A DNA stretch of 64,000 nucleotides from Candidatus Omnitrophota bacterium (GCA_003598025.1 QZKH01000009.1:64896-128895); one strand, 5' to 3'; counted from the stretch's first letter, positions 2,933-62,666 are shown. Numbers and translations: made by a program. Notes: generated by a model not told the origin, from the letters alone.

Positions 2933-2963
2933 AGAATTCCTACCACATTTTAATGCAGGCATA

Positions 2964-2994
2964 CGCCAGGCAGAAGATCTCCTTCTGCCTGGCG
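2964..2994. promoter_or_regulatory. perfect 13-bp inverted repeat (CGCCAGGCAGAAG-atctc-CTTCTGCCTGGCG) immediately upstream of recombinase start
   Basis: Read directly; lies between the recombinase start (2932) and the next minus-strand ORF. Confidence 0.4.
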
Positions 2995-3006
2995 GCGCTA
3001 AAACAG

Positions 3007-3330
3007 TTATGCCTGGGCCTTCTGCTTTTTGCCTTTTCCCCAGCCAGCCTTCCATCTGGCCACTGCCCCGGAGACGATCTCGTTGATGCGCTCCTGGGTT
3101 GTGCCTTCCTTGAGGATCTCAACAAGCTCTTCTTTGTTGATTACCCGGAAGTTTTTGATGCCGCGCTCTTTGGCTTTAAGCATCAGCTCATGGCGCGACG
3201 ACTCTTTGGCGGCTGATTTGCCGGCTTCAGGCTCTTTTGTAGCTTCTACCGGCGCGCTGGCTTTTTCAACGAACGGCATGTTCTTTGATGAGGACGTCTT
3301 TAAGAAATTTGCCGAGCTTGGCATGGCCAT
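3007..3330 (-). CDS. small Rho_N/SAP-like nucleic-acid-binding protein (start uncertain)
   Basis: C-terminal half HELMLKAKERGIKNFRVINKEELVEILKEG matches the Rho N-terminal domain consensus (L..LK..A.E.GI.N...M.K.ELI..IL). No SD seen at either candidate start. Overlaps antisense with the 5' end of the rSAM remnant. Confidence 0.4.
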   Translation of the reverse strand: MAMPSSANFLKTSSSKNMPFVEKASAPVEATKEPEAGKSAAKESSRHELMLKAKERGIKNFRVINKEELVEILKEGTTQERINEIVSGAVARWKAGWGKGKKQKAQA

Positions 3331-5010: not shown

Positions 5011-5214
5011 ATGGCAGGCGAAAAAATTACTGTTGAATTCAAAGACGGAAAGAAAATAACCAAATACCCCGGAGGGAAGGTTTCCGAGCAGACCCAGGAG
5101 GACCTGGAAAGATACAAAGATTTTCTTACAAGGGAGAGGCAGCGGATTGACCGGCATATCTCTTTAATTGACGATGACCTCAGTCAAATAACGGCAAGCA
5201 AGAAGGCAAAGTGA
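5011..5214 (+). CDS. hypothetical protein (67 aa)
   Basis: ORF with RBS; charged, coiled-coil-like. Confidence 0.3.
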   Translation: MAGEKITVEFKDGKKITKYPGGKVSEQTQEDLERYKDFLTRERQRIDRHISLIDDDLSQITASKKAK

Positions 5215-5217
5215 GCG

Positions 5218-5502
5218 ATGGAAAATAATAAAGGCTGGACAAAATTCATAACGCCGGTACTAGTTACGATTGCCATCTTTATGCTGGGCAATATCACTAT
5301 GCAGCTCAGCCGGCTTGAAGATAGAGTATTCCAGCATCTGGCCAACGACCAGATTCATGCTCCGAGATCTCAATTCGTCTCTAAGGCAGAATTTGACTTG
5401 CACTGCAAATTCTCTGAAAAAGAAAACGGTCAAATCTTGAAGGCAATCGATGACTTGAGAAACGATTTAAAGGTAAAAAGCCGAGATGAAAGAAATCAGT
5501 AA
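5218..5502 (+). CDS. small membrane/coiled-coil protein
   Basis: One TM (FITPVLVTIAIFMLGNI) followed by a coiled coil; same architecture as the 27291-27506 product. Confidence 0.4.
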   Translation: MENNKGWTKFITPVLVTIAIFMLGNITMQLSRLEDRVFQHLANDQIHAPRSQFVSKAEFDLHCKFSEKENGQILKAIDDLRNDLKVKSRDERNQ

Positions 5503-6470: not shown

Positions 6471-6518
6471 CTGGAATCAAAAAATATAAAATAAACAGTC
6501 ATAAGGAGTAGGTTTATT

Positions 6519-17956: not shown

Positions 17957-18418
17957 ATGGCAATAACCGTATTTGTTAGTTTTAACCACGCTGACCAAAA
18001 ACAGCTTGAAGCTTTTGATTTGCTTAAAAATAAGACGAAACATGTTTTTGAATCTCATGACCATTTATGCAAAGAAGTATCGCCGGACGGCAGCGAAAAA
18101 TTAATTATATGCCAGATAAACGAAGGCCGTTCAAAACCAATGCGCGAAGAAATTATCAAGAAATTCGAGCAGTGTTCTAAGCTGGTAGTTTTAATGGGGA
18201 ATGAAACCTATAAAGACGCATGGGTTGAATGGGAAGTCAACAATTTTTATAAGATGAAAGATGCGCTTTTGCCTGGTAAAGCGTGGATGAATATTCGTGG
18301 TATGTTTCTTGAAGGCTGCGAAAAAGCGACAGCTCCTAAGGCTTTGGAATGCAGGTCGACGCAACGCTTGGCTTGGGACCCCGAGGCTTTAGAAAAATGG
18401 ATAGACGAATTAAGTTAA
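17957..18418 (+). CDS. TIR-like domain protein (DUF1863 / Thoeris ThsB-like)
   Basis: MAITVFVSFNHADQK... resembles the ThsB N-terminus (MAKRVFFSFHYQD, recalled from memory). Later KLVVLMGNETYKDAWVEWEV resembles ThsB VLIGSQTFNRRWVRYEI. SD AAGGAGCGGAGG precedes ATG 17957. Confidence 0.6.
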   Translation: MAITVFVSFNHADQKQLEAFDLLKNKTKHVFESHDHLCKEVSPDGSEKLIICQINEGRSKPMREEIIKKFEQCSKLVVLMGNETYKDAWVEWEVNNFYKMKDALLPGKAWMNIRGMFLEGCEKATAPKALECRSTQRLAWDPEALEKWIDELS

Positions 18419-34029: not shown

Positions 34030-34212
34030 GATAATGAATACCCTTGTTAATAAATACATCGCGTATCTGATGGTAGCTGAAAAAGAGCTTGCCGGAGCAC
34101 ATGCGTCTAAAAGCTTTCCCGGTAAGCAGAACAAGGAAGAAAAGCAGGCATTCAGCTTGAAAGGGAGTGAAAATTGAGGATATCGCCTGCGGTTTTGTGG
34201 GAGGTGGTAGAA

Positions 34213-34626
34213 ATGAACGAAGAAAGAAGAGCATTTAAAAGGCTACCTGTAGAATTGAAAACCCACTGTATCAGAAACCTCTGCGGGAAATCCCATGAAT
34301 ATTTCCCGTCTTTCGCGAAAAATATCTCATTTCAAGGTATGCATCTTATCTCTTCTAAGGATATCGGGATAGGCGAACGTTTAGATTTTGCCTTAGAGGT
34401 TCCTATCTACTTTATACCGCTCTTGCTTCATGGAGAAGCTAAATGGGTAATACATAAAAATGGCCTGAATAATAACGTCGTGTGCGGTTTTAAATTCTTT
34501 AAAATGGAGCCAATTGATTATAAGAGATTGAAAAATTACTTAATCTCAATTGAAAAAGAATATTTCTCCTCTCTCAATGAAGCAGCTTCTATCCGGGAAG
34601 ATGCTGGTATCTTACAGGAGGTTTGA
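34213..34626 (+). CDS. PilZ-domain (c-di-GMP-binding) protein
   Basis: EERRAFKR (RxxxR) and KNISFQG (D/NxSxxG) motifs; SD GGGAGGTGG. Confidence 0.6.
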   Translation: MNEERRAFKRLPVELKTHCIRNLCGKSHEYFPSFAKNISFQGMHLISSKDIGIGERLDFALEVPIYFIPLLLHGEAKWVIHKNGLNNNVVCGFKFFKMEPIDYKRLKNYLISIEKEYFSSLNEAASIREDAGILQEV

Positions 34627-46891: not shown

Positions 46892-47818
46892 TTATCTGCG
46901 CTTATCTTTTATAAAATTTGATTTTTCCATCCTTTTAGCAGCTTCTTTTAATTCTGCCCCTATTTCTCCGATTTGAGCAACATGCTCTATTTTCCTGAAT
47001 TCATTTGTGACAACCCCGATAGACACTGACAGGATGGGTACCTTTTGTTCGCGGCCCTGGCGGTCTTTACCAATAATATAACCAAGTTTTCTATCATGTT
47101 CATTATAGAAAGAGGGGGCTATTTTATCAAAATCAGATATTATCTTTTCGCAAATTCCATCCGCAGATTCAAGAGATGTGACTACTACAAAATCATCGCC
47201 TCCGATATGGCCTACAAAATCTCCTTGAGAGCCTAGCTCCTGCGTTGACCTGATAAGGATACGGGCAGTTTCACGGATAACCTGGTCGCCATGTTCAAAA
47301 CCGTATTTATCATTGTAAGATTTGAATTTATCCAGGTCAATATAACAGACGGCAAATTTTTCCTGGCTTTCGATCCTCCTTGATAGCTCATTCAATATCG
47401 ATACGTTACCAGGCAGGCGGGTAAGGGGATTGGCCTCTAAGTCAATTTCGGTACGCCGCAATATCATTTTTATGCGCGCTATTAATTCTTTGGGCTCAAA
47501 GGGTTTTACAATATAATCATCAGCCCCTGCGTCGATTCCGCCTACCTTATCATTGAGATCGCCTTTGCCTGTTACCATTATTACAGGCATATGCCTCAGC
47601 AACAGGTCTTTTTTAATCAACGCACAAACCTGCCTGCCGTCTACCTTAGGCATTTTATAATCAAGCAATACCAAGTCAAATGCCCGGCTGTTAATTAATG
47701 CCAGCGCCTCTTCCCCGTCTTTTGCCTCGTGGACTTCGTAGTTTTCTTCCGCCAGGGTAATTTTAAGTATATCTCTTATGTCCGGATCGTCGTCTACAAC
47801 CAGTATGCGTATTTTCAT
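46892..47818 (-). CDS. response regulator with GGDEF-family domain (active-site variant GGDDF)
   Basis: REC (ILVVDDDPDIRD...) plus a GGDEF-like domain (RLPGN...HIGGDDFVVV). Confidence 0.7.
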   Translation of the reverse strand: MKIRILVVDDDPDIRDILKITLAEENYEVHEAKDGEEALALINSRAFDLVLLDYKMPKVDGRQVCALIKKDLLLRHMPVIMVTGKGDLNDKVGGIDAGADDYIVKPFEPKELIARIKMILRRTEIDLEANPLTRLPGNVSILNELSRRIESQEKFAVCYIDLDKFKSYNDKYGFEHGDQVIRETARILIRSTQELGSQGDFVGHIGGDDFVVVTSLESADGICEKIISDFDKIAPSFYNEHDRKLGYIIGKDRQGREQKVPILSVSIGVVTNEFRKIEHVAQIGEIGAELKEAAKRMEKSNFIKDKRR

Positions 47819-47826
47819 ATTTAATT

Positions 47827-49320
47827 TTAACTTTTTTTACGTTGTAAAGTAAAACTGAATATTGAACCGTTGCCTAATTCGCTTTTAACCCAGATTTTAC
47901 CTCCGTGGGCTTCCACTATGCTCTTAACAAGTGCCAATCCTAATCCGGTACCTTTTACCTCTTGGTTAATGGCGTTATCTACCCGGTAAAATTCTTCAAA
48001 AATCGCCTCTTGCGCTTCTTTGGGTATACCATAGCCGGTATCAATAACGTTGATTTGTATGGTATTTGGGTCAAGTTCTTTAGTCTCTATAGATATTTTT
48101 CCTCCGGCAGGAGTAAACTTTATGGCATTGCCCACAAGATTTATCAAAACGCGCTCAATCTGTGTTTTATCGGCGAGGATCTGTATAGGATTTTGTGTGA
48201 TCTTATAACTTAAATCCAGCTGTTTATCTTTTGTCTGTACTGATAATAAATCAGTTATTTTGTTGATTATGGCGTTTAAGTCGCACGACTCTAGCTTCAT
48301 GGTTACCCGTCCTGCCTCCATTCTTGATATGTCCAGCAGGTCGTTTACCATATGCACCAATTCATCGCTATGAAGATTAATTTTGGTTAATCTTTCACGT
48401 ATCTCTTCAGGTATTTCTCCTAGTTTTCCGGCAAGCAATATCGAGGCATATCCTTTAATAGATGTCAGCGGCGTTCTGAGCTCGTGAGATACGCTTGAAA
48501 CAAAATCTGTCTTTCGCTTGCTTATTAATTTAACTTCGTTAAGGGCTTTTGTAAGATCGCGCGTTCTTTCTTCAACCTTTTTTTCCAAGTCCTGCTGAGC
48601 GAGCCACGTTTTTGTAAAAAGCCTGGCATTCTCAAGTGCCTGGCCTATTTCGTTAGCCAGTATAGTTATTAATTCTTCATCGCCTTCTGTAATTTTTGTG
48701 TCTGTTCTTTGCGTGCCGACAACCAGAAAACCTCTGTTCCCTTCATTGGGCAAGATAGGCGCAATAACGAATGATGTTGAATCAAATGTTTCCTTAAGGA
48801 CGTTAATTAAGCCTGTTTCTTTTGACAGGGAAGATATGGGCCGTTCTTGTTTTATGAAATTCAGATAAAATTCTTTATTCTGTTTTAATTTAGGCTGAAA
48901 AGAACTGGCTGTGTCTTCGCTGTAGCCTATACTTAGATAACAAGAGAATTCATTATTGTTATCCAGAAGAAAACCGCAGGCTTTTTCGAATCCTAAATTT
49001 TCAAGATAACTTATATCGATCATCTTAAAGATCTGTTTTTCCTCCAGAGTTGTGCTTAGCGATTTTGATAATTTCTGCAAAGCGTATAGCCCTGTTATTT
49101 TCTTATCTAATTCTTCATGCGCCTTATTGAGCTCAAGGTCTGTGCGGACGATAAGCTTGGCTTGTTCGTCCATCTCGTTAAGGGAGCGTTTTAGTTCATT
49201 AATTATTGCTTGCTGTTTTTTAATTTGCTCCATTTTCGCGCTTAGATAAATTACAAGCGCAAAAATTGTCAATATTGAAGCTATGCCCAGAATATTGATT
49301 AAGCTTTCATATGAGAGCAT
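47827..49320 (-). CDS. sensor histidine kinase (TM, coiled coil, GAF-like, HisKA, HATPase_c)
   Basis: H-box SHELRTPL; DTGYGIP; GLGLALV. Confidence 0.75.
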   Translation of the reverse strand: MLSYESLINILGIASILTIFALVIYLSAKMEQIKKQQAIINELKRSLNEMDEQAKLIVRTDLELNKAHEELDKKITGLYALQKLSKSLSTTLEEKQIFKMIDISYLENLGFEKACGFLLDNNNEFSCYLSIGYSEDTASSFQPKLKQNKEFYLNFIKQERPISSLSKETGLINVLKETFDSTSFVIAPILPNEGNRGFLVVGTQRTDTKITEGDEELITILANEIGQALENARLFTKTWLAQQDLEKKVEERTRDLTKALNEVKLISKRKTDFVSSVSHELRTPLTSIKGYASILLAGKLGEIPEEIRERLTKINLHSDELVHMVNDLLDISRMEAGRVTMKLESCDLNAIINKITDLLSVQTKDKQLDLSYKITQNPIQILADKTQIERVLINLVGNAIKFTPAGGKISIETKELDPNTIQINVIDTGYGIPKEAQEAIFEEFYRVDNAINQEVKGTGLGLALVKSIVEAHGGKIWVKSELGNGSIFSFTLQRKKS

Positions 49321-49322
49321 AT

Positions 49323-50513
49323 TTATCCTTCTATAGCTAAAATTGTCACTGTTTGATTATGAGAGTAGACCTTGCCTAGATATCCTATAGCTTTCATCGG
49401 GGCCTGCTCTCCGTATGTATAGATACCAGCTATTATTGTATTTTGTGTAAAATGGTTTTTTATAATCTCAATCTCTCCGATGGCATCCCTCTTTAAAAGC
49501 ATGTACCTGGATATCGAGTCAAATACTAAAGCGAGGTTTGCCTGTTTATTCAGCAGCCCCTTTTTTGCTTCTTCAGCTGCCTGTTGAGTTGCCAGAAGGC
49601 ATGATTCTTTTGTCCCGATCATTAATCGTATTTGGCTGCCCTGAGGAATATCTCCCTGCAATATTATTGAGCCGTCATTTTCTACTGAGAGAATGTTTCT
49701 AAGTAGATACTCTTCTCTCCCGGATATATATATCCCAATAGGATACAGGACTGATATACGGTTTAAATCTATTTTTAGTTTTTTAATTTTCGCAGCAAGA
49801 TAATCTTCATAAAGTTCTACTGCCGGCCGAGAATCGATCTCATAAACGATATTGCCTGTGGACCTGGTTACAGAGCGCATTTTCCCAAGGGGTTTCCAGC
49901 CGTGTTTTACTCCCAGCCCAAAATTTAATTTACCTCCCCAGAGAATGCCGCATGCCGCTTCTGATAAAACCTGGTCTTCAAATATGATCGGAGTTTTCTT
50001 AAATTCCAGATTATCTGAAGCCGAAGCCCCGACTATGGGGAAACTTTTGCCTAGTTTCTGCTGCATCCCTAAAATTATGTCTTGCTTTTCTCCGATCAGC
50101 CCGTCAGAAAAAACCAACCCCAAATCTCTTCTAATACCCTTAAAGCCGTAAAGCAGCTTTTCTGCGAATTGATCTCCTGCCTGTATCAGCGGCCTTGATT
50201 TTAAGTCTTTTATAAAGGCAGTATTAAAATATGTCCCTTCAGAAAATTTTATCAATAGTATAATTATACCATGTTTAAATATGCCCTCGTTAGAAATAAT
50301 TGCAGCCCCGCAACATCCGATTATCGGAGTTTCCGGGAGGTAGCCTTTTAATTTGGAAAGGATGAGGGGGGAGACAGCATCAATGGTTGCAAAAATAATC
50401 GCTAAATCGGCTGTTTCGCTGGTTAATTGAACTTTGGCATGCTGCAAAGCCTCATAAGCAGATTCTAAAGCGGAGCTATGCGTACCTAGGCCTACGCCGA
50501 TTTTTATCGCCAT
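49323..50513 (-). CDS. FIST-domain sensor protein
   Basis: FIST_N/FIST_C-like layout; first gene of the minus-strand operon. Confidence 0.5.
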   Translation of the reverse strand: MAIKIGVGLGTHSSALESAYEALQHAKVQLTSETADLAIIFATIDAVSPLILSKLKGYLPETPIIGCCGAAIISNEGIFKHGIIILLIKFSEGTYFNTAFIKDLKSRPLIQAGDQFAEKLLYGFKGIRRDLGLVFSDGLIGEKQDIILGMQQKLGKSFPIVGASASDNLEFKKTPIIFEDQVLSEAACGILWGGKLNFGLGVKHGWKPLGKMRSVTRSTGNIVYEIDSRPAVELYEDYLAAKIKKLKIDLNRISVLYPIGIYISGREEYLLRNILSVENDGSIILQGDIPQGSQIRLMIGTKESCLLATQQAAEEAKKGLLNKQANLALVFDSISRYMLLKRDAIGEIEIIKNHFTQNTIIAGIYTYGEQAPMKAIGYLGKVYSHNQTVTILAIEG

Positions 50514-53045: not shown

Positions 53046-54635
53046 ATGAATAAAAGAAGACTTTGCAAGGGCTTTATGATGCTGAGTTTATTTTTGCTCG
53101 GCTTGAATTCAGTTATTTCAGCAGCCGAAGTCAAATTATATATGGGCGAGACAAAGGTTTTGGCTGTCAGCAGCCCTACCAGAATTGCTATCGGTAACCC
53201 TTCTGTTGCAGATGTCTCCAATGTCAACTCAAACAGCATAACCTTAGTCCCTAAAGGACTGGGCTCTACGTCGCTGGTGCTCTGGGATATATACGGAGAG
53301 CAGGCATACACTTTAAGGGTGCTCCCTGAGAATATAGATTATGCTAAAAAGCGGATTGATGAGCTGCTTAAGTCTTTGAATCTTCCTGAAGTTTATACTA
53401 AGTCGGAAGAAGATGAGGGCCGGATTTTATTGCTAGGCAGGGTCAAAACTCCTCAGGATAGGGAGAGAATAAGCGTTTTGTTGGGCGCTCTCAAGGATAA
53501 AACAATAGATCTCTTAGAAGTTAGAGAAGAAGAAGCCGTTATTGAAATAGATGTGCAGGTTTTAGAGCTTAATAAGGATGCAACAAAGGCTTTGGGGTTG
53601 ACAAACCCGCTTAGTACTCAGGACGGATACAGCATCACTGAAGTAGGCTCTCCAGGATTAACAGGGGCAAAATGGTCAGAGCTGTTTAAAGTCCTAAGCC
53701 TTAAGCGTACCACAGCTTTTAATTGGACGCTTTTCGCTTTGGTCCAAGAAGGCAAAGCCAGGATATTATCTAGGCCAAGATTAGCTTGCCAGAGCGGGAA
53801 AGAAGCAGAGCTTTTAGTCGGAGGGGAGAAGCCGATATTTACTACGCAGGTTGCTTCTGCCGGAGGGCAGGGGACAGAAGTAGAATATAAAGAATATGGG
53901 ATTAAACTCAAGATAAAGCCTACTATCAGCGAGGAGAAAAGAGTAAAGTTAGCCTTGAATGTTGAAGTAAGCGAGGTTGGTGATGCGGAAATAATCGGCT
54001 CAGTAGAAGCCCCTACTGCAAAAGCTTTCCCCTTGACCAAGAGGACAGCGTCTACAGAGTTATTTTTAGATGATGGGCAGACGATGGCAATCGGTGGTTT
54101 GATTAAGAGCAAGAGTGAAGAGGATTATACCAAAACACCCGGCCTTGCAGATATCCCGATATTCGGCATGATGTTTAGGAAAAAAAGCGGTAAAGTCGGA
54201 GGCGGCACAGGGGAAAGAGGAGATAGTGAATTATACATTACTTTAACTCCAAAAGTTATTAGCGAAAAAATTCCCGCCAAAAAATCAGATAACGATAACA
54301 AGAATATTGCCAGTAGCGATCAATCAGCAGGCGTTGAGCCTACATCTACCGAAGGGGTCTATGCAGGCTTAGTGCAACAGCGTATATTAAAGAAAATATC
54401 TTATCCGCTTTCTGCAAAGAAAGCCGGTTTCCAGGGTACGGTGAGGCTCAGTCTTATTATTTCCTATCAGGGTGAATTGCTCGGTGCCACGATTAAGGAT
54501 TCTTCGGGTTACAGAGTGCTTGATGAAAATGCTATCGCAGCGGCCAGGAGCGTTTCTTCTTATCCGCCATTTCCTTCATCCATAGATTCGGAAGAAATAG
54601 AGATTGAAGTCCCGATAGTCTACCAGCTAAACTAA
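53046..54635 (+). CDS. cpaC: Tad secretin CpaC/RcpA with fused C-terminal TonB_C domain
   Basis: Secretin core (…GGLIKSK…TPGLADIPIFGMMFRKK…). C-terminal YPLSAKKAGFQGTVRLSLIISYQGELLGATIKDSSGYRVLDENAIAAARSVSSYPPFP matches the TonB C-terminal signature. Confidence 0.75.
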   Translation: MNKRRLCKGFMMLSLFLLGLNSVISAAEVKLYMGETKVLAVSSPTRIAIGNPSVADVSNVNSNSITLVPKGLGSTSLVLWDIYGEQAYTLRVLPENIDYAKKRIDELLKSLNLPEVYTKSEEDEGRILLLGRVKTPQDRERISVLLGALKDKTIDLLEVREEEAVIEIDVQVLELNKDATKALGLTNPLSTQDGYSITEVGSPGLTGAKWSELFKVLSLKRTTAFNWTLFALVQEGKARILSRPRLACQSGKEAELLVGGEKPIFTTQVASAGGQGTEVEYKEYGIKLKIKPTISEEKRVKLALNVEVSEVGDAEIIGSVEAPTAKAFPLTKRTASTELFLDDGQTMAIGGLIKSKSEEDYTKTPGLADIPIFGMMFRKKSGKVGGGTGERGDSELYITLTPKVISEKIPAKKSDNDNKNIASSDQSAGVEPTSTEGVYAGLVQQRILKKISYPLSAKKAGFQGTVRLSLIISYQGELLGATIKDSSGYRVLDENAIAAARSVSSYPPFPSSIDSEEIEIEVPIVYQLN

Positions 54636-54636
54636 T

Positions 54637-56790
54637 ATGTCAAAAGTCATAGCTTTATTCAGTACAAAAGGCGGCGTAGGCAAGACATTAATCGCAGCTA
54701 ACCTTGCCGTAAGCCTTTTTAAGGATTATTCTAAGAAAGTATTGCTTGTAGACCTTGACCTTCATGTCGTCGGAGATATGGCCAGGATGCTGGATGTAAG
54801 TCCACATCGCTCAATAGCGGATATAATCGTTCATATCAAAAAGCAGCCCGGCGACTCTGTTAAGAAGGAGAGCTATGTCTCTAAGACGTCTATAGGGGTT
54901 GATTTTCTGCCCGCAGTCCTGAAAGCCCAGCAGTCTCCGCATCTTGATGCCCAAAAATTAAAAGATATATTCGAACTTTACGATAAAGATTATGATTTTA
55001 TAATTGTAGATGTCGGCAAAAGCATAACCGACATGCTTGTTTCTACTTTAAACCAGGCAAATTTAATCCTCTTGATTGTAACCCCGGATATTCTATCTAT
55101 CTATCAGACTAAATGGACGCTGGATACCTTAAGATCTTTGCATTTCCCATATAAAATGATAAGGCTTGTCCTTAATAGGGCTGAATCTTTGGCCAGCGTC
55201 AGTTGGCAGGAAGTAAGGATTAACTTTCCGATTGATATTATTGACCAGGTACCTTCTGATGGAAGGGTGGTAGGAAATGCAGTCAACAGGGGCGTGCCGG
55301 TAGTTATCGATAATCCCAAGGCCAAGATTTCCGCGTCAATAAGGCATTTGGCATCATTATTGGTATCCAGGAATGATTATTTTATTGAACGCTCTGAAGT
55401 CAGTCAGATGAAAGTCGAAGAGGACATGCTGGAGAAACCGGCCCAGATATGGCAGGCCGAAGGCTTGACAGAGGCTTTGGGCAAACCCGAAACCCGCGAC
55501 GAGGATGATGAGATATTAAAACTTAAAAGGCGCATACACGATAGATTGATAGAGGAGCTTAATTTAAAAAGGATAGATTCAAAAGTATTCAGCGATCCTA
55601 AAAAAGCCAGGGAATTAAGAAATAAGGCAGAGATATTAGTTGCTAATCTTCTGGTTGAAGAGGCGGGTAGCTTTATTACTTCTCATGATGTGCGCAGAAA
55701 ATTGACCAAAGAGATACTCGATGAGGCCTTGGGCCTTGGCCCGCTTGAAGATTTACTTGCCGATGGCGCGATAACCGATATCATGGTCAACAATAAGGAC
55801 GAAATATATATAGAGAAAAATGGAAAAATTGAGCTTACTACCAAGAAGTTTATTTCTAATGAACAGGTAAAGACTACCATTGAAAGAATAATCGCTCCGT
55901 TAGGAAGAAGAATAGATGAATCTGTGCCGATGGTCGATGCCCGTTTGCCGGACGGCTCTCGTGTAAATGCGATAATTTCCCCGCTTTCGTTAACCGGGCC
56001 TACATTAACAATAAGAAAATTCCGCAAGGAAAGATTCACCATTGACGAGTTAATCGGTATTAAAACTTTAAGCAGGGAGATGTCGGATTTCATAAAGGCA
56101 TGCGTTTTAGCAAGAAAAAACATCATTGTTTCCGGTGGTACCGGTTCCGGTAAGACAACCATACTCAATATTCTGTCTGCTTTTATACCGGATTATGAAA
56201 GGATTGTTACTATTGAGGATGCCGCTGAATTGAAACTGCATCAGGAGCATTGGGTTCGGCTTGAGGCTAGACCGCCGAATATCGAAGGTAAAGGCGCAGT
56301 AACAATACGAGATCTTTTCCGCAACAGCTTAAGGATGAGGCCGGATAGGATCATAATTGGTGAGTGTCGCGGGCTTGAAACCATGGATATGCTACAGGCG
56401 ATGAACACCGGCCACGACGGTTCTATGACTACGCTTCACGCCAACTCAACCCATGATGTCCTGGTGAGGCTCGACTCTATGATTTTGATGTCAGGAGTTG
56501 AGTTACCAGTCAGGGCTATCAGGGAAATGGTGGCCTCAGCGTTACATGTTATTGTCCATACCGCCCGTATGTCTGATGGCTCAAGAAAGATTATAGAAAT
56601 TACCGAAGTCGCAGGAATGAGGGATGACATCCATGTTGATTTAAAAGATATATTCTCGTTTAAGCAGACCGGCATAGATAAAGAGGGGAATGTATTAGGA
56701 GATTTCCAGGCAACAGGTTACATACCGTCATTCATTGAAGAGATCAAAGTCAAAGGTATTCCTCTTTCTGAGGATATGTTTAAGATATAA
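54637..56790 (+). CDS. fused CpaE (MinD/ParA-like) - CpaF/TadA (VirB11-like) pilus ATPase
   Basis: N-terminal [15 protein letters not shown] (deviant Walker A). C-terminal GGTGSGKTT and [13 protein letters not shown]...[13 protein letters not shown], typical of TadA. Confidence 0.8.
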
Positions 56791-57150: not shown

Positions 57151-57817
57151 CCGTTTCTCCCGCTCTTCAGGGACCGTTTCTCTTGCTGACCACAAAGGTG
57201 CCCCCATAGAGCCGTATTAAACTTCTTTTAAGGTATCTAGTAGATTATTAAACTGTCCCGACATGCGATATCTTGCGCTACTATAAGGATAGCTAAAAGG
57301 AGATAAGGCAATATTGGCTCTCACGGGATTTGATTCAACATATTCGATACATTTTAAGAGGTAATCGTCACTTAGAATAGCCAAGCTTTTATATCTGCCT
57401 TGCCATAGATGGCCAACCTTTTTATATCTGCCATTATACCAAGAGGTATAAGTTAAGTTGACCTTCAACATGATTTTTGACAAAATTTTTCCGTCAACTA
57501 ATCCAAGCAGTAAATGAACATGGTTAGGCATCAGGCAATAACAGAATACCTTGAATTTGCATTCTTTCTTGTAATGCCTTAGAATGTCGAGATATTTTAC
57601 GTAGTCTGTTTCATCATGGAATATGATCTGCTTTTGATTACCCCTTGTTAAAACGTGATAAAAACACCTATCAAGCAATAATCTCTTGGGTTTTGTCATA
57701 ATTCCACCTCCAAATGATTAGACGAAAATAAGGGAGTCTATCTAACGAATTTTCTTAAATAGGGGCACTTCTATGAAGAGCAACGGAAACGGTCTGTGAA
57801 GAGCGGGAGAAACGGCC
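57151..57817. mobile_element. IS200/IS605-like (RayT/REP-associated) element with ~55-bp imperfect inverted ends
   Basis: Left end 57151-57205 CCGTTTCTCCCGCTCTTCAGGGACCGTTTCTCTTGCTGACCACAAAGGTGCCCC. Right end 57762-57817 is its imperfect reverse complement. Each end contains the CCGTTTCTC direct repeat. Confidence 0.65.
57217..57699 (-). CDS. tnpA: Y1 (HuH) transposase, IS200/IS605 TnpA / RayT-like
   Basis: FYHVLTRGN...; HVHLLL (HuH); catalytic Y in ...YSSARY. Confidence 0.8.
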   Translation of the reverse strand: MTKPKRLLLDRCFYHVLTRGNQKQIIFHDETDYVKYLDILRHYKKECKFKVFCYCLMPNHVHLLLGLVDGKILSKIMLKVNLTYTSWYNGRYKKVGHLWQGRYKSLAILSDDYLLKCIEYVESNPVRANIALSPFSYPYSSARYRMSGQFNNLLDTLKEV

Positions 57818-57909
57818 CTAAGAAATTAGTTACTATATTTGTCCAATCTAAAATAATTGACAAGTTTGGACATTTATGTTATATTTAAAATGTCCAATGA
57901 GAGGAATAA

Positions 57910-59523
57910 ATGGGAATAATCTATAAGCTAACCGAACAAGCTAAAAATATAGTTCTTGATGAAAAGCGCAATAATCCCAAGTTAAGCTGCAGGAAATTAG
58001 TTTTATTATTAAAAAATAAGCATAATTTAGTACTTTCCAAATCCAGCATAAATTCTATTGTTAAAGAGGCGGGTTTAAGTCAGTCAGTAGGAAGAAAACC
58101 TGCAAAAATAACTCCAAAAAAAGTTAGGCCCTCAGTACCCACCCCGAAAGAAGCAATCGTTGAAAATTCAGCTGTAATAAGCGAACCTGTTCCAATTGTA
58201 ATTGAGCCGCCCCAGGTTAAGGTTAAAGAATCTCCGGTGCTAATTGAAAATGCCGGATACGTTTTTTTAAAAATAGCCGATGATCTAATAGGCGGAGGCA
58301 GACAAATTGCATCTATAATTGCTTCAAAGCTTAATAACGTAACTACTTCTGATATAATGAGTTACAATAATTCGCTTTTATTTAGAGCATTCAATGCTAC
58401 TTCTATTTTGACAGCCATTCAAAGCCTTTCTCCCAATGAGGTAGGTTTATCTTCATATCTTGCTGATTTACAATCAGTTACGAACATTACCCCCAGGCTT
58501 ATAAAAGCGCTTACAGATGCTTTTACGCGGATAAGAGGCTATAGATTATATTTCTCCGATAATTCAACATTATTTCTTGATAGCCAATTTCGATCTGTAT
58601 GGCAGGTGCCTAACATGCCAATTGATTTTTCTCTATCATATTTAAATGCAAGCAGTTACGTTAAGAGTATCATAAATCACTATAAGAATTTTTGTATTCA
58701 ATCAGGAGCTAAAGATAACTTAATTCCTGAAGAATTCATTGATTTATGTATAGGTTTATCTAACTCCGGTAAAACATTAAAAAACATAAGCTTGTTTTCT
58801 GATAACTTAACTGAGATTGAAAATATTGCTGTTCAGCAGGAGCAGCAGCCTTTTACTCTGGTGGCTGGTTTCTGGAGCGATCAAATTAGGGGGGGAATTA
58901 AAATAAATATGGTCAAGGATTTTGAATCAGCTTTCATTGGAGAATTATCGACTCAGCTTCATATTGGTTTTGCTGATTTAGATGTTACGCAACTAACTGC
59001 AAATAAAAGAGTTAAATTAAAAGGCTACTTGATAAAATCATCCCCTAATGATAAAAGGTTCCTTGTAATCGCATCAAGCAATTATTCAGAACCATTTGAT
59101 AATCAAGGGGTTATAGTAGATTATTTAAAGCTTTGGCCAAATTATTTTGAGGGTTTTATTGACTTTAAACGAAAATATGAGGCTTTTACTTATCTGCCTG
59201 AGCCCGCAGCGAATTTTAATTTTAAAGACTTAGGGCCGAATAGCGATATAAAGGCAACCCTCAGGGAATATTTTAACGGACTTGATTTCTATGTCAGGAG
59301 ATATATTCTGCCTCCAGATTACGAAACTGAATCTTTCTCGACGATAAATGAGCATTTTTACAGCCTTAAAGCAGTTGTCATGGATAAAACAAGCCATTTC
59401 CAGCTTAAATTCCAGGTTCCCGATGGTTACAAATTTACCAGCGTAGTTAGATACGCCTGCCGCAGGGCAAATGAGCGATCAGCAATGTTTGCCGATGGTA
59501 AAAAGATATTACTTGAAATATGA
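57910..59523 (+). CDS. uncharacterised 537-aa protein in tad locus
   Basis: ORF only; N-terminal HTH-like segment and a P-rich linker; no recognised family. Confidence 0.35.
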   Translation: MGIIYKLTEQAKNIVLDEKRNNPKLSCRKLVLLLKNKHNLVLSKSSINSIVKEAGLSQSVGRKPAKITPKKVRPSVPTPKEAIVENSAVISEPVPIVIEPPQVKVKESPVLIENAGYVFLKIADDLIGGGRQIASIIASKLNNVTTSDIMSYNNSLLFRAFNATSILTAIQSLSPNEVGLSSYLADLQSVTNITPRLIKALTDAFTRIRGYRLYFSDNSTLFLDSQFRSVWQVPNMPIDFSLSYLNASSYVKSIINHYKNFCIQSGAKDNLIPEEFIDLCIGLSNSGKTLKNISLFSDNLTEIENIAVQQEQQPFTLVAGFWSDQIRGGIKINMVKDFESAFIGELSTQLHIGFADLDVTQLTANKRVKLKGYLIKSSPNDKRFLVIASSNYSEPFDNQGVIVDYLKLWPNYFEGFIDFKRKYEAFTYLPEPAANFNFKDLGPNSDIKATLREYFNGLDFYVRRYILPPDYETESFSTINEHFYSLKAVVMDKTSHFQLKFQVPDGYKFTSVVRYACRRANERSAMFADGKKILLEI

Positions 59524-59562
59524 TAAGTTAAGAAAGCGGTTTCAAAATGGCTCCCGATTAGC

Positions 59563-59591
59563 TTGACTAGTATATATATAAATGCTATATT
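59563..59591 (+). promoter_or_regulatory. promoter TTGACT-17-TATATT
   Basis: Read directly. Confidence 0.45.
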
Positions 59592-59599
59592 TAAAATGT

Positions 59600-59798
59600 A
59601 AGACGGCAGCGAAAACTCCGGACAAAGATTCGGAGTCCCGACATTTCGTCGGGAGGCAATTCCATTATTGGAGGTAATGGATGCGCAAAGCCACGGGACG
59701 ATGCTCGTCACAAATCAGTCTTTATCCAGTTTTTCGTTTTGGGTCGCAAACGAGAGCGTTAGCCGGGTTACCGAAAGCCGTATGGTTTTCGGTTTTTT
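59600..59798 (+). ncRNA. structured 5' leader, candidate c-di-GMP-I (GEMM)-like riboswitch with intrinsic terminator
   Basis: GGCAATTCC-ATTATTGG...TAATGG-ATGCGCAAAGCCACGGGACG resembles the GEMM core (GGCAAACC...GACGCAAAGCC.CGGG, recalled from memory). Terminator CCGAAA-gccgtatgg-TTTCGG+T7 at 59771-59798. Leader precedes the flp pilin genes. Confidence 0.4.
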
Positions 59799-59860
59799 AT
59801 TTTTTGGGCTTGTTAACAACTTTTAAAAAGATTTAAATAACTGAAAAGGAGGTGAAGAAT

Positions 59861-60046
59861 ATGTTAAGCAAAAGAGGTCAGTCAACATTGGAGTATGTAT
59901 TGATTCTTACTGCTATCATCGCTGCGATAATCTTGGTCGCCAATAATTTTGTCAGGCCAAGAGTAGGGTCATCTTTGGACCATGTAACTAATCAGATGGA
60001 GCAGCAAGCAAACAGAATCCAGTTCGGAGCAGCGCCAGTTGAATAA
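59861..60046 (+). CDS. flp: Flp/Fap-family pilin
   Basis: MLSKRGQSTLEYVLILTAIIAAIILV (G/QSTxEY prepilin motif); SD AAAGGAGGTG. Confidence 0.7.
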   Translation: MLSKRGQSTLEYVLILTAIIAAIILVANNFVRPRVGSSLDHVTNQMEQQANRIQFGAAPVE

Positions 60047-60073: not shown

Positions 60074-60502
60074 ATGTTAAAAATCTTAGGTAAAAGAGCA
60101 CAAACTACTGCCGAATATGCTGTTTTGATTGCACTGGTAGTTGGTGCAGTTGTAGCAATGCAGGTCTATGTAAGGAGAGGTTTGCAGGGAAGGATCAGAA
60201 ACGTCGTTGATCACGTTGATTCCGGTGGGCCCGTAGGGCAAGACGAGGACCAATTTACATTCACTGCTGAGCAGTATGAACCGTATTATTTGTCTTCTCA
60301 GTCAGCCACAGCCCGTGAAAGCACACAACAGGAAATCTTAGGCCGCGGCGGCGAGGTTGGAAGAGGTACTGCAGAGGCAACAGGGGTACAGCGTCAACAG
60401 ATTATGGGTTGGGATGATACGACTTTAGCTACGCCAGTAGCGGCTCCCAGCGTAACAGAGCCGGGAATGCCGACTGTACCGCAACCAGAGAATGTTGAAT
60501 AA
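60074..60502 (+). CDS. Flp-like pilin with ~100-aa C-terminal extension
   Basis: MLKILGKRAQTTAEYAVLIALVVGAVVAM... Confidence 0.6.
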   Translation: MLKILGKRAQTTAEYAVLIALVVGAVVAMQVYVRRGLQGRIRNVVDHVDSGGPVGQDEDQFTFTAEQYEPYYLSSQSATARESTQQEILGRGGEVGRGTAEATGVQRQQIMGWDDTTLATPVAAPSVTEPGMPTVPQPENVE

Positions 60503-60519: not shown

Positions 60520-60864
60520 ATGTTCATACATTTAAATAAAAGAGGCCAAAGCACATTGGAATACGCTCTTATTATAGCTGTAATAATAGCAGCTTTAATT
60601 GCTATGCAGACGTATTTCAAAAGAGGCCTTCAGGGCAGGTTAAAGCAAGCAAGCGATGATGTCGGCGAACAATTCTCATCAGGAGCCAGCTACTATGACT
60701 ATACTACGCAGACCAGTATTTCATCTAATGAAGAGGTAAAGCCTGGTGTTGATGATACATCCAGAGGCGGGATCACTCAAACAGATACTACCCAGAATGT
60801 TACCAGGACAGGTACTGAGCATGTTGCTGAATACGGGGACACAGGCGAGTATTGGCCACAATAA
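60520..60864 (+). CDS. Flp-like pilin with C-terminal extension
   Basis: MFIHLNKRGQSTLEYALIIAVIIAALIAM... Confidence 0.6.
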   Translation: MFIHLNKRGQSTLEYALIIAVIIAALIAMQTYFKRGLQGRLKQASDDVGEQFSSGASYYDYTTQTSISSNEEVKPGVDDTSRGGITQTDTTQNVTRTGTEHVAEYGDTGEYWPQ

Positions 60865-60943: not shown

Positions 60944-61795
60944 ATGTTTTTGGCGATTGCGTTATTCTCAATATCTTCGATATGCCTTATTGCTTCTGTA
61001 GTTTTTCCTTGGGCTGATGATAAGCGTTTAGCCTGGCAGGATGAGAAGGAAAAGACTATAGGCAGGAAGATGGACGATATGTTTTACTATGACAGAAGCC
61101 CAAGGCAGATCGTGCTACTTTATTATATGCTGCCACCAATACTAGCTACGCTCAGCTATTATTTAGTATCAAAATCCCTCCTTGTAATATTTTTTGCAGC
61201 AGGATTAGGTGTAGCTATCCCCAATATTATTCTCAAAGTAAGAGACGCTAATAGAAGAAGAAAATTCCGCCAGCAGATCCTTGATTGCCTCATGCTATTA
61301 TCAAGCTGCCTAAAGGGCGGCTTATCTCTTTTACAGTCTTTTGAAGTTATAGTAGAAGAGATGCCTGCTCCAATGGCGCAGGAGATGGGTCTGTTAGTCA
61401 GGGAAAATAAGATGGGTGTTACTTTAGAGGAGGCTCTAAAGAGGTTCGATAGGCGTATACAAACCGAAGAATGGAGCCTGGTAATTAATTCTATTTTGGT
61501 TGCCAGGGAAACAGGCGGTGATTTAACCAAGGTTTTCAGCCGGCTTTGTACGACGATCAGAGATAATCAAAAACTTAAAGATAGCATACAGACACTCACT
61601 CTTCAGGGCAGGCTGCAGGGTATTATAATGTCAGCGCTGCCGTTTTTGTTTGTTGCCTGGGTATTACAGTTCAATAAAAATCATTTTGATGTTATGTGGC
61701 AGAATGATTTAGGAAGGATGCTTATGATTGCGGCGATACTTTTACAGATTGTCGGTATGGTTTTAATCCGCAAATTCAGCATCATTAAGATATAG
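60944..61795 (+). CDS. tadB: TadB (T2SS-F family inner-membrane platform protein)
   Basis: T2SSF domain; 3 TM. Confidence 0.7.
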   Translation: MFLAIALFSISSICLIASVVFPWADDKRLAWQDEKEKTIGRKMDDMFYYDRSPRQIVLLYYMLPPILATLSYYLVSKSLLVIFFAAGLGVAIPNIILKVRDANRRRKFRQQILDCLMLLSSCLKGGLSLLQSFEVIVEEMPAPMAQEMGLLVRENKMGVTLEEALKRFDRRIQTEEWSLVINSILVARETGGDLTKVFSRLCTTIRDNQKLKDSIQTLTLQGRLQGIIMSALPFLFVAWVLQFNKNHFDVMWQNDLGRMLMIAAILLQIVGMVLIRKFSIIKI

Positions 61796-61808: not shown

Positions 61809-62666
61809 ATGGAAATATATATATATGCCCTTATATTCGCAAGTTTATTGTTTATACTCTTGGGCATTTTTGGCTTTGGTTCGGAACGCAGCGGTAAATA
61901 TAAACTGCCGGTAAATGAAATCGAAGTCAAAAAAGCAAATATGCACCAGATCCTTACTAATATGTTCCCGTTTACCAGGAAGCTTCTTGAAAGGCTTGGG
62001 ACGTATCAGAAGCTGCGTTTAAAATTGGAAGGGGCACACGTAAATTTATCCCCGATAGAGTTTTTTAATATAAAGATAATATTAATATTCGTCTTATTAA
62101 TCGTATCGATATTCTCATTCGGCAAGTTTGAACCGATGGCCATAGCTGTTTCTTTGGCTGCGGGGTATTTATTGCCGGAAATATGGGTTGCTCTAAAAAT
62201 AAAAAAACGTAAAGAAGAAATAGTAAGGCGCCTTCCAGAAACGGTGGATTTATTAAGCCTTTGCGTTGAGGCAGGGCTTGATTTTACTATGGCAGTAAAA
62301 TGGGTAGTTGAGAAGGTTACATTAAACCCTATGCTTGAAGAATTACGTTTCCTTCTTGAAGAGATAAAATGGGGCAAATCACGCTCCCAGGCATTAAGGG
62401 ATATGTCAAGGAGGATAAATGTGCCTGAGGTTACATCTTTTGCCCAGACACTTATCCAGGCAGACAGGATGGGTACGCCCGTGGGTGAGGCATTTATGAT
62501 ATTGTCAGAAGATACTCGGTTAAGGCGGTTCCAGAGAGGCGAAAGAATAGCCCTTAAAGCGCCTATTAAGATACTGATACCTTTGATATTTTGCATATTA
62601 CCGGTTATCGCAATTATTATCGGCGGGCCGATACTTATACAGTTTTCGAACAATAAATTATTTTAA
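61809..62666 (+). CDS. tadC: TadC (T2SS-F family)
   Basis: T2SSF domain. Confidence 0.7.
   Translation: MEIYIYALIFASLLFILLGIFGFGSERSGKYKLPVNEIEVKKANMHQILTNMFPFTRKLLERLGTYQKLRLKLEGAHVNLSPIEFFNIKIILIFVLLIVSIFSFGKFEPMAIAVSLAAGYLLPEIWVALKIKKRKEEIVRRLPETVDLLSLCVEAGLDFTMAVKWVVEKVTLNPMLEELRFLLEEIKWGKSRSQALRDMSRRINVPEVTSFAQTLIQADRMGTPVGEAFMILSEDTRLRRFQRGERIALKAPIKILIPLIFCILPVIAIIIGGPILIQFSNNKLF

Follow-up and report, generated by a model that had tools for sequence, protein, structure and literature searches.

The 5' leader of an flp-tadBC operon from a Candidatus Omnitrophota bacterium probably acts as a c-di-GMP-I (GEMM-I) riboswitch that turns transcription on; we put the probability of this reading at roughly three in four. 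Between positions 59563 and 59805 of the window, by which we mean the whole analysed stretch of 64,000 nucleotides, a sigma-70-type promoter is followed by a c-di-GMP-I aptamer and an intrinsic terminator. Related leaders share the fold of the aptamer, which covaries among them, and keep the nucleotides that contact the ligand; aptamer and terminator exclude each other. Judged by its sequence, the c-di-GMP-gated Flp pilin switch suggested in an earlier note on this DNA is largely right; comparison with related leaders appears to add to it the lack of the GNRA tetraloop/receptor contact, a P1 5' strand far upstream, an insertion of two hairpins and the ON direction. For the Omnitrophota, which are largely uncultured and whose regulation has hardly been studied, c-di-GMP would be connected directly with the expression of Tad/Flp pili, in a way that can be tested. 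The known working of c-di-GMP-I riboswitches is left unchanged by these results.

Genetic setting of the leader

The first Flp pilin gene, flp1, encodes a protein with a Class III signal peptide and extends on the plus strand from an ATG at 59861 to a stop codon at 60046, preceded by the Shine-Dalgarno sequence GGAGG (59848-59852, plus strand). Its ATG lies 55 nt past the U-run of the terminator and 67 nt past the terminator stem. On the same strand follow flp2 (60074-60502), flp3 (60520-60864), tadB (60944-61795) and tadC (61809-62666), which together with flp1 presumably constitute the controlled operon. More pilin-like genes are located beyond tadC.

Upstream of the flp promoter, the window contains cpaB, a cpaC secretin gene, a DUF192 gene and a fusion of tadZ and cpaF. 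Between this group and the promoter are a gene for an IS200-like Y1 transposase (57217-57699, minus strand) and an ORF of 537 amino acids with a weak match to HTH_Tnp (57910-59523). Both together (57217-59523) look like an insertion splitting the tad locus. The CpaC-type secretin (53046-54635) carries a TonB_C domain at its C-terminus, and the pilus ATPase (54637-56790) is a fusion of TadZ (ParA-like) and CpaF (T2SSE) comprising 717 amino acids.

As the earlier note had pointed out, the window also encodes a PilZ protein (34174-34626) and, on the minus strand, an operon of FIST (49323-50513), histidine kinase (47827-49320) and REC-GGDEF (46892-47818) genes. In contrast to this c-di-GMP machinery, no gene indicating cGAMP was seen in the window. 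The REC-GGDEF protein is the sole GGDEF protein of the window. Its motif reads GGDDF instead of GGDEF or GGEEF, and the Pfam match spans just positions 5-118 of the 161-position domain; with such a motif and a partial domain match its cyclase activity is uncertain. The GGDDF at the active-site motif counts against a c-di-GMP switch.

Promoter and aptamer

The leader was expected to have its own promoter, and indeed the best promoter-like site of the region is a sigma-70-type promoter on the plus strand (59563-59591) with 10 of 12 matches. It consists of the -35 box TTGACT (59563-59568), a 17-nt spacer, a TG at 59583-59584 and the -10 box TATATT (59586-59591). In 58 of the 76 relatives described below (among the matches listed) the same arrangement, TTGACx-N16-18-TATATT, is kept and ends 12-20 nt upstream of P1.

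The Rfam model RF01051 matches positions 59645-59775 over its full length (model positions 1-87) with 37.1 bits, the gathering score being 35. The E-value was 9.7e-6 locally and 0.0012 for the entire window. This is a borderline match, for which independent support was needed. Two insertions lower the score: 9 nt form a loop at the tetraloop site, and 42 nt are added to the second hairpin. The class II aptamer, also considered in the earlier note, is a pseudoknotted fold; its model RF01786 gave no match in the window, nor in 59400-59900 even at E-values up to 10, and this option was dropped. The note had made its reading depend on a significant covariance-model match or an alternative fold. 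Here we found both, the RF01051 match and a terminator fold competing with the aptamer.

The core GGCAATTCC...GGATGCGCAAAGCCACGGGACG on which the resemblance to GEMM had been based is located at 59655-59700, the hairpin between its two parts being P2. The proposed layout of the leader holds with every feature in its place, except for the extent of the aptamer. This is larger than the Rfam match and includes a P1 5' strand beginning at 59603 as well as two hairpins at 59616-59654.

P1 lies outside the Rfam match. Its 5' strand (59603-59611, plus strand) comprises a distal part, ACGGC (59603-59607), paired with GCCGU (59777-59781), and a proximal CG (59610-59611), paired with CG (59772-59773), the latter being annotated in the related Rfam model RF03167. 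The distal pairs covary in the family, including changes from C-G to A-U, and P1 is part of the minimum-energy fold of the nascent RNA. The P1 3' strand (59772-59781, plus strand) is located inside the 5' arm and the loop of the terminator. A different P1 results if the Rfam segment alone (59645-59775) is folded, namely UCGG paired with CCGA. We rejected this pairing because UCGG belongs to one of the extra hairpins (hairpin b) and the family places the P1 5' strand at 59603-59611.

The junction J1/2 starts with the adenosine run AAAA (59612-59615, plus strand), part of a CGAAAA conserved in the family alignments. Inserted in J1/2 are hairpin a (59616-59635; stem CUCCGGA/UUCGGAG, loop CAAAGA) and hairpin b (59636-59654; stem UCCCGAC/GUCGGGA, loop AUUUC), both on the plus strand. 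Hairpin b abuts hairpin a as well as the next nucleotide, G59655, and both hairpins belong to the aptamer. In the Rfam alignment G59655 (plus strand) is the equivalent of G20 of Vc2, the Vibrio cholerae riboswitch.

P2 (59656-59686, plus strand; P1b in Vc2 nomenclature) is composed of GC/GC pairs, an internal loop AAU/UGC, in which C59684 is the C44-equivalent, and a 7-bp stem. Its 7-nt loop UUGGAGG (59668-59674) contains GGAGG (59670-59674) where a GNRA tetraloop is typical. P2 is connected to P3 by the linker AAA (59687-59689, plus strand; Rfam alignment), and A59687 corresponds to A47. The linker between the GEMM hairpins is described as 'virtually always AAA' (PMC1950547), and the leader has this AAA.

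The base of P3 (59689-59769, plus strand; P2 in Vc2 nomenclature) is a helix with an AG bulge, in which G59762 is the G83-equivalent; P3 also has a CUCG/CGAG segment (59704-59707/59751-59754). Its 5' bulge is first A-rich and then U-rich, and the terminal hairpin CGUUU/AAACG carries the loop GGGUC (59741-59745). The 11-nt tetraloop receptor (CUAAG/UAUG) was not found in P3 of the window. P3 is followed by J3/1 (59770-59771, plus strand), consisting of A59770 and C59771, the C92-equivalent.

The window has the set of ligand-contact nucleotides of the class, G59655 (G20), A59687 (A47) and C59771 (C92). In the crystal structures of Vc2, A47 intercalates between the two bases of the ligand. G20 of Vc2 contacts one guanine of c-di-GMP and C92 forms a Watson-Crick pair with the ligand (PMC11705072). 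The long-range contacts in Vc2 are two, the GNRA tetraloop with its receptor and the C44-G83 pair (PMC11705072). The partners of the second contact are both present in the window.

Conservation among related leaders

Using TadB as anchor we retrieved 80 Omnitrophota tad loci, 11 of which share the gene order of the window with three flp genes upstream of tadB. In each of these 11, the first flp gene, an orthologue of flp1 (M..RKGQSTLEYV...), is preceded at 71-113 nt by a homologous leader. Metagenomes were scanned with a pattern specific to the subclass, yielding at least 120 further loci; there were at least 78 complete unique cores. The resulting set comprises 76 non-redundant relatives, 68 of them found by the metagenome pattern. 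This pattern demanded GGAGG and the GCGCAWRGCCACGGGA core, so that their conservation in the metagenome set is by construction and A47 is fixed there as well. Stems, P1, the ACC junction, promoter and terminators were left unconstrained.

In 80 sequences aligned with a covariance model, 98.0% of the cells at paired positions were standard pairs, compared to 15.7-41.3% if the partners were slid by 1-3 columns. Ten pairs showed changes on both sides, and the covariation score of 0.196, compared to 0.078 for shuffled alignments, was attained by none of 500 shuffles. Six helices including P1 are backed by pairing or covariation, with compensatory changes in P1, P2 and P3. For three stem pairs of P2, both sides were changed in 33, 5 and 23 sequences, respectively.

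When the window sequence was left out and a family model was built from 68 relatives, this model matched the window with 119.3 bits (E 3.7e-27) over 59602-59780, which is more than chance. The next match of this model in the 64 kb, at 18086-18129, reached 18.5 bits (E 0.011) and is most likely noise. The evidence from comparing these sequences is much stronger than the Rfam score. With Rfam, the close relatives obtained 28-41 bits and two members were missed, compared to 59.5-69.6 bits for canonical GNRA-loop elements of the same phylum. Members of the family are at or below the Rfam threshold and such leaders are therefore probably under-annotated.

At the junction, ACC, and with it the C92-equivalent, is present at J3/1 in 76 of 76 relatives (among the matches listed), although the search pattern did not demand it. 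The C44/G83 partners showed no covariation; by eye, about 12 relatives among the matches listed have A at the G83-equivalent with an unchanged C44. Relatives with UUAACCGGG have this A, e.g. L162, L194, L138, L160, L107 and L192, and further L118, L139, L142, L143 and L183.

In about 34 of the 80 Omnitrophota tad loci, further c-di-GMP-I elements form a second set, located 1.8-4.6 kb past the start of tadB (e.g. L038:6219-6326, L014:7913-8020, L023:6981-7083 and L026:7294-7378). Their loop is of the canonical GNRA type and position 20 is G throughout; they also have a promoter of their own and a terminator overlapping the element. In L038 the element is followed by a long ORF beginning at 6478 (MLKIFKPRIEDKEA...KSSFKAWIRVVAF...), which matches Peptidase_C39 weakly. 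No element of this second set is present in the window or in its 140-kb MAG contig. Several of these canonical elements (L026:7299-7374, L071, L023, L014, L062, L038 and L064) are labelled c-di-GMP-I-GGC by Rfam with 59.5-69.6 bits (threshold 59). They carry A at the A47 position (GACGCAAAG, compared to the consensus GACGCGAAG). The label reflects their similarity as a whole and could be misleading in annotations.

A divergent periphery

The leader is a member of the c-di-GMP-I class and, as far as the sequence comparison goes, a divergent subclass of it. The assignment to the class follows from the curated threshold and the core features, all of which it has apart from the GNRA/receptor pair. 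The systematic replacement of the periphery and the five-way junction make it a variant and not a routine member.

The P2 loop (U)GGAGG(U) was found in 10 of the 11 loci retrieved via the protein, an anchor unbiased in this respect. P3 is long, with the A-rich/U-rich bulge and a small terminal hairpin, which has a covarying stem and the loop GGGUC(A). By eye, the GGGUC motif with its covarying small stem occurs in about 68 of the 76 relatives (among the matches listed). For the GGAGG loop, no RNA partner was identified by loop pairing and covariation in the relatives among the matches listed. Pairing of GGAGG with GGGUC was rejected, as two pairs are possible at most and GGAGG is kept in members without the GGGUC hairpin (L011, L088, L137 and L004). 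Pairing with the U/C-rich bulge of P3 is possible, the invariant GGAGG giving no covariation signal.

The GGAGG of the P2 loop (59668-59674) is identical to the Shine-Dalgarno core of flp1. It is also located 6 nt upstream of an ATG at 59681, which starts an ORF of 51 codons (59681-59836) crossing P3 and the terminator. GGAGG could then serve as the ribosome-binding site of a leader peptide whose translation controls the terminator. We consider such an attenuator extremely improbable. In 36 of the 76 relatives (among the matches listed) there is no start codon 4-10 nt past GGAGG, and the ORFs vary in length between 3 and 108 codons among the relatives listed. The shared 'MRKATG' is a mere translation of the invariant RNA core, and GGAGG is exposed in a hairpin loop whose closing stem covaries. 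As it is not conserved among the relatives, a leader peptide starting from the ATG at 59681 was ruled out.

The two extra hairpins of J1/2 are a conserved module and not noise, as judged from its recurrence in related sequences. The module is common to 16 unique relatives (among the matches listed), with several pair types per stem position, and 14 of these 16 fold by themselves into two abutting hairpins when folded per sequence. It is preceded by one unpaired A and directly followed by the G20-equivalent. Because of these two conserved hairpins before G20, the aptamer of the window forms a five-way junction. The metagenome contig L105 possesses two flp-leader riboswitches in opposite orientation (5155-5293, plus strand, and 2959-3139, minus strand), one with the two-hairpin insertion and one without it.

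Terminator and proposed switching

The intrinsic terminator anticipated in front of the flp genes extends from 59770 to 59805 on the plus strand. It consists of the stem-loop ACCGAAAGCC-GUAU-GGUUUUCGGU (59770-59793; 10-bp stem, 4-nt loop, -13.9 kcal/mol) directly followed by the U-run UUUUUAUUUUUU (59794-59805). The stem-loop and the aptamer have 59770-59781 in common, where J3/1 and the P1 3' strand are located. Since both of these fall within the stretch that makes up the 5' arm and the loop of the terminator (59770-59783), the RNA can adopt either the aptamer or the terminator, not both at once.

A transcript reaching to 59783 has a minimum-energy fold of -60.8 kcal/mol which includes P1. 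For the full leader, the terminator state (-70.8 kcal/mol) is about 10 kcal/mol better than the state with P1 enforced (-60.8 kcal/mol). Since the full leader favours the terminator, read-through would need P1 to be locked, as the ligand does in this class.

By a direct complementarity test, 72 of the 76 relatives (among the matches listed) were found to re-use the 3' nucleotides of the aptamer in the 5' arm of a terminator. This is realized in three designs, with the arm beginning at ACCGAAAGCC, CCGGGYUACC or GCCGAAG. The re-use in three designs indicates that the element should be an ON switch, and the same logic in differing sequences argues for a working one.

We propose the following mechanism, in which the identity of the ligand, the start of transcription and, for the cell, the direction and size of the regulation are inferred. 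Transcription from the conserved promoter would begin near 59598 and the nascent RNA would fold into P2, P3 and the two accessory hairpins. If c-di-GMP is present, it would be bound at the junction by G59655, A59687 and C59771. Binding would lock P1 (59603-59611 with 59772-59781), thereby holding nucleotides of the terminator 5' arm, and with the terminator blocked RNA polymerase would read through into flp1-3, tadB and tadC. In cells lacking the ligand, the weak P1 would lose to the 10-bp terminator (59770-59793 and the U-run) and transcription would stop about 55 nt before flp1. High c-di-GMP would lead to more Tad/Flp pili. This predicted increase agrees with the role of c-di-GMP in adherence and, by analogy, with the pilA1 switch of C. 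difficile.

The loss of the GNRA/receptor contact could also mean that the leader descends from a riboswitch and senses no small molecule. It would then be a constitutive attenuator or one modulated by a protein or sRNA, e.g. by binding of a protein or the ribosome to the GGAGG/GGGUC loops. Such a leader would fit the conserved GGAGG loop, a Shine-Dalgarno core for which no RNA partner was identified, and the core is degenerate in a few relatives (L059, L033, L004/L058). Still, we regard this explanation as quite improbable. The contacts and the junction are strongly conserved, including the ACC that the pattern did not require, and P1 covaries, its only role being to close the pocket. The three independent terminator designs compete with the aptamer, as predicted by a ligand-gated switch and not by a fixed attenuator.

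Ligand specificity

Binding of c-di-GMP would be expected from the contact nucleotides of the leader, and a ligand-gated ON switch responding to c-di-GMP is the reading we prefer. Against it speak the lack of the GNRA/receptor contact, which is a folding aid in Vc2, and the position of the extra hairpins, which are inserted directly 5' of the G20-equivalent and could disturb the binding pocket. In the 76 relatives (among the matches listed) the G20-equivalent is G in 65, C in 6, A in 4 and U in 1. The 11 members other than G are L012, L021, L011, L123, L180 and L088 (C), L046, L130, L095 and L004 (A), and L164 (U). This variation indicates that selection on the contact is relaxed somewhere in the family, and the 11 members may have an altered ligand specificity.

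Rare c-di-GMP-I variants sense c-AMP-GMP. An A at position 20 is said to mark cGAMP sensors, reportedly since work of Kellenberger and Nelson in 2015, and we take it to set the cGAMP specificity of the riboswitch upstream of Geobacter pilM. The window has G59655 at this position, and A was found in 4 of the 76 relatives (among the matches listed).

A GEMM-I-derived riboswitch with the same ON logic and a pocket retuned by the periphery might nevertheless respond to another dinucleotide, cyclic or linear (3',3'-cGAMP, c-di-AMP, pGpG or other). The subclass is located at the edge of the Rfam clan, and three relatives match c-di-GMP-I-UAU best, far below its threshold (28-41 compared to 65.9 bits). 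Besides the variable G20-equivalent, the differing tertiary contacts and the insertion adjoining G20 are compatible with another ligand. We nevertheless regard it as unlikely for this leader, as the window has the canonical G20/A47/C92 set, most relatives keep G20, and PilZ and GGDEF proteins are encoded with nothing suggesting cGAMP. Furthermore, c-di-GMP binders already vary in their periphery, e.g. with and without the receptor (PMC1950547).

A more far-reaching idea, which we put forward as speculative, is that the Omnitrophota flp leaders form a distinct GEMM-I subclass, in which GGAGG and the GGGUC hairpin (or another partner) replace tetraloop and receptor. Together with the optional two-hairpin module next to G20 this might retune affinity, kinetics or specificity, and those members whose position 20 is C, A or U might sense other dinucleotides. 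If this holds true, sensors of several second messengers would have arisen from a single pilin leader.

Comparison with known riboswitches

The leader shares with Vc2 (RF01051) the P1/P2/P3 junction with a pocket-closing P1, the core GGCAA...CGCAAAGCC...AGCCGGGUUACC, the equivalents of G20, A47 and C92, the C44/G83 partners and the AAA linker. Unlike Vc2, its P2 lacks the GNRA tetraloop and its P3 the tetraloop receptor. Instead, the subclass exhibits a conserved GGAGG loop of 5-7 nt and a long P3 with the GGGUC-loop hairpin. Further differences to Vc2 are the distal P1 helix CGGC/GCCG, set apart by an internal loop, and the two hairpins between the J1/2 adenosines and G20. The Rfam score is 37 bits, whereas canonical elements from this phylum reach about 60 or higher. 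A GNRA tetraloop on the first GEMM hairpin, with a receptor in the second if the loop is GAAA, is typical and not strictly defining. If the leader is a working c-di-GMP-I riboswitch, the GEMM-I pocket tolerates the loss of the GNRA/receptor clamp as well as an insertion of two hairpins beside a ligand-contact nucleotide.

RF01051, the best match for the element of the window, shares its clan (CL00126) with the families c-di-GMP-I-GGC (RF03167) and c-di-GMP-I-UAU (RF03168). c-di-GMP-I-GGC, the meaning of 'GGC' being read from the model consensus, is defined by G at the A47 position (consensus GACGCGAAG), whereas the window (GCGCAAAG) has A. Taking 'UAU' as positions 20, 47 and 92 by analogy with GGC, the window differs from this family by G and C instead of U and U at positions 20 and 92.

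In the literature searched we found no report of c-di-GMP riboswitches from Omnitrophota or preceding Flp/Tad genes, and no description of the architectural variant, although switches of this kind are well known. In the GEMM paper of 2007, the pilus genes cpaA, pulF and pilM/O/Q are among the targets, terminators overlap the aptamer, and the ligand was predicted to raise expression (PMC1950547). The GEMM-Ib riboswitch upstream of Geobacter pilM has the same aptamer fold class as the leader of the window and controls pilus genes, too (PMC9262584; PMC1950547). It acts on transcription as an ON switch: P1 requires the ligand, c-GAMP, in order to form, and the aptamer and the terminator exclude each other (PMC9262584). 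It differs from the leader studied here in being a cGAMP sensor, in controlling type IV pilus assembly genes and not Flp/Tad genes, and in its canonical periphery. In C. difficile, c-di-GMP prevents formation of the leader terminator in Cdi-2-4, so that the major pilin gene and downstream pilus genes are transcribed (PMC6366702). This class II riboswitch upstream of pilA1 resembles the leader of the window in function, but has the unrelated class II fold and precedes a type IVa pilin, not an Flp pilin. With the leader described here, riboswitch control of pilins would be extended from the type IV pili of Geobacter and C. difficile to Flp pilins.
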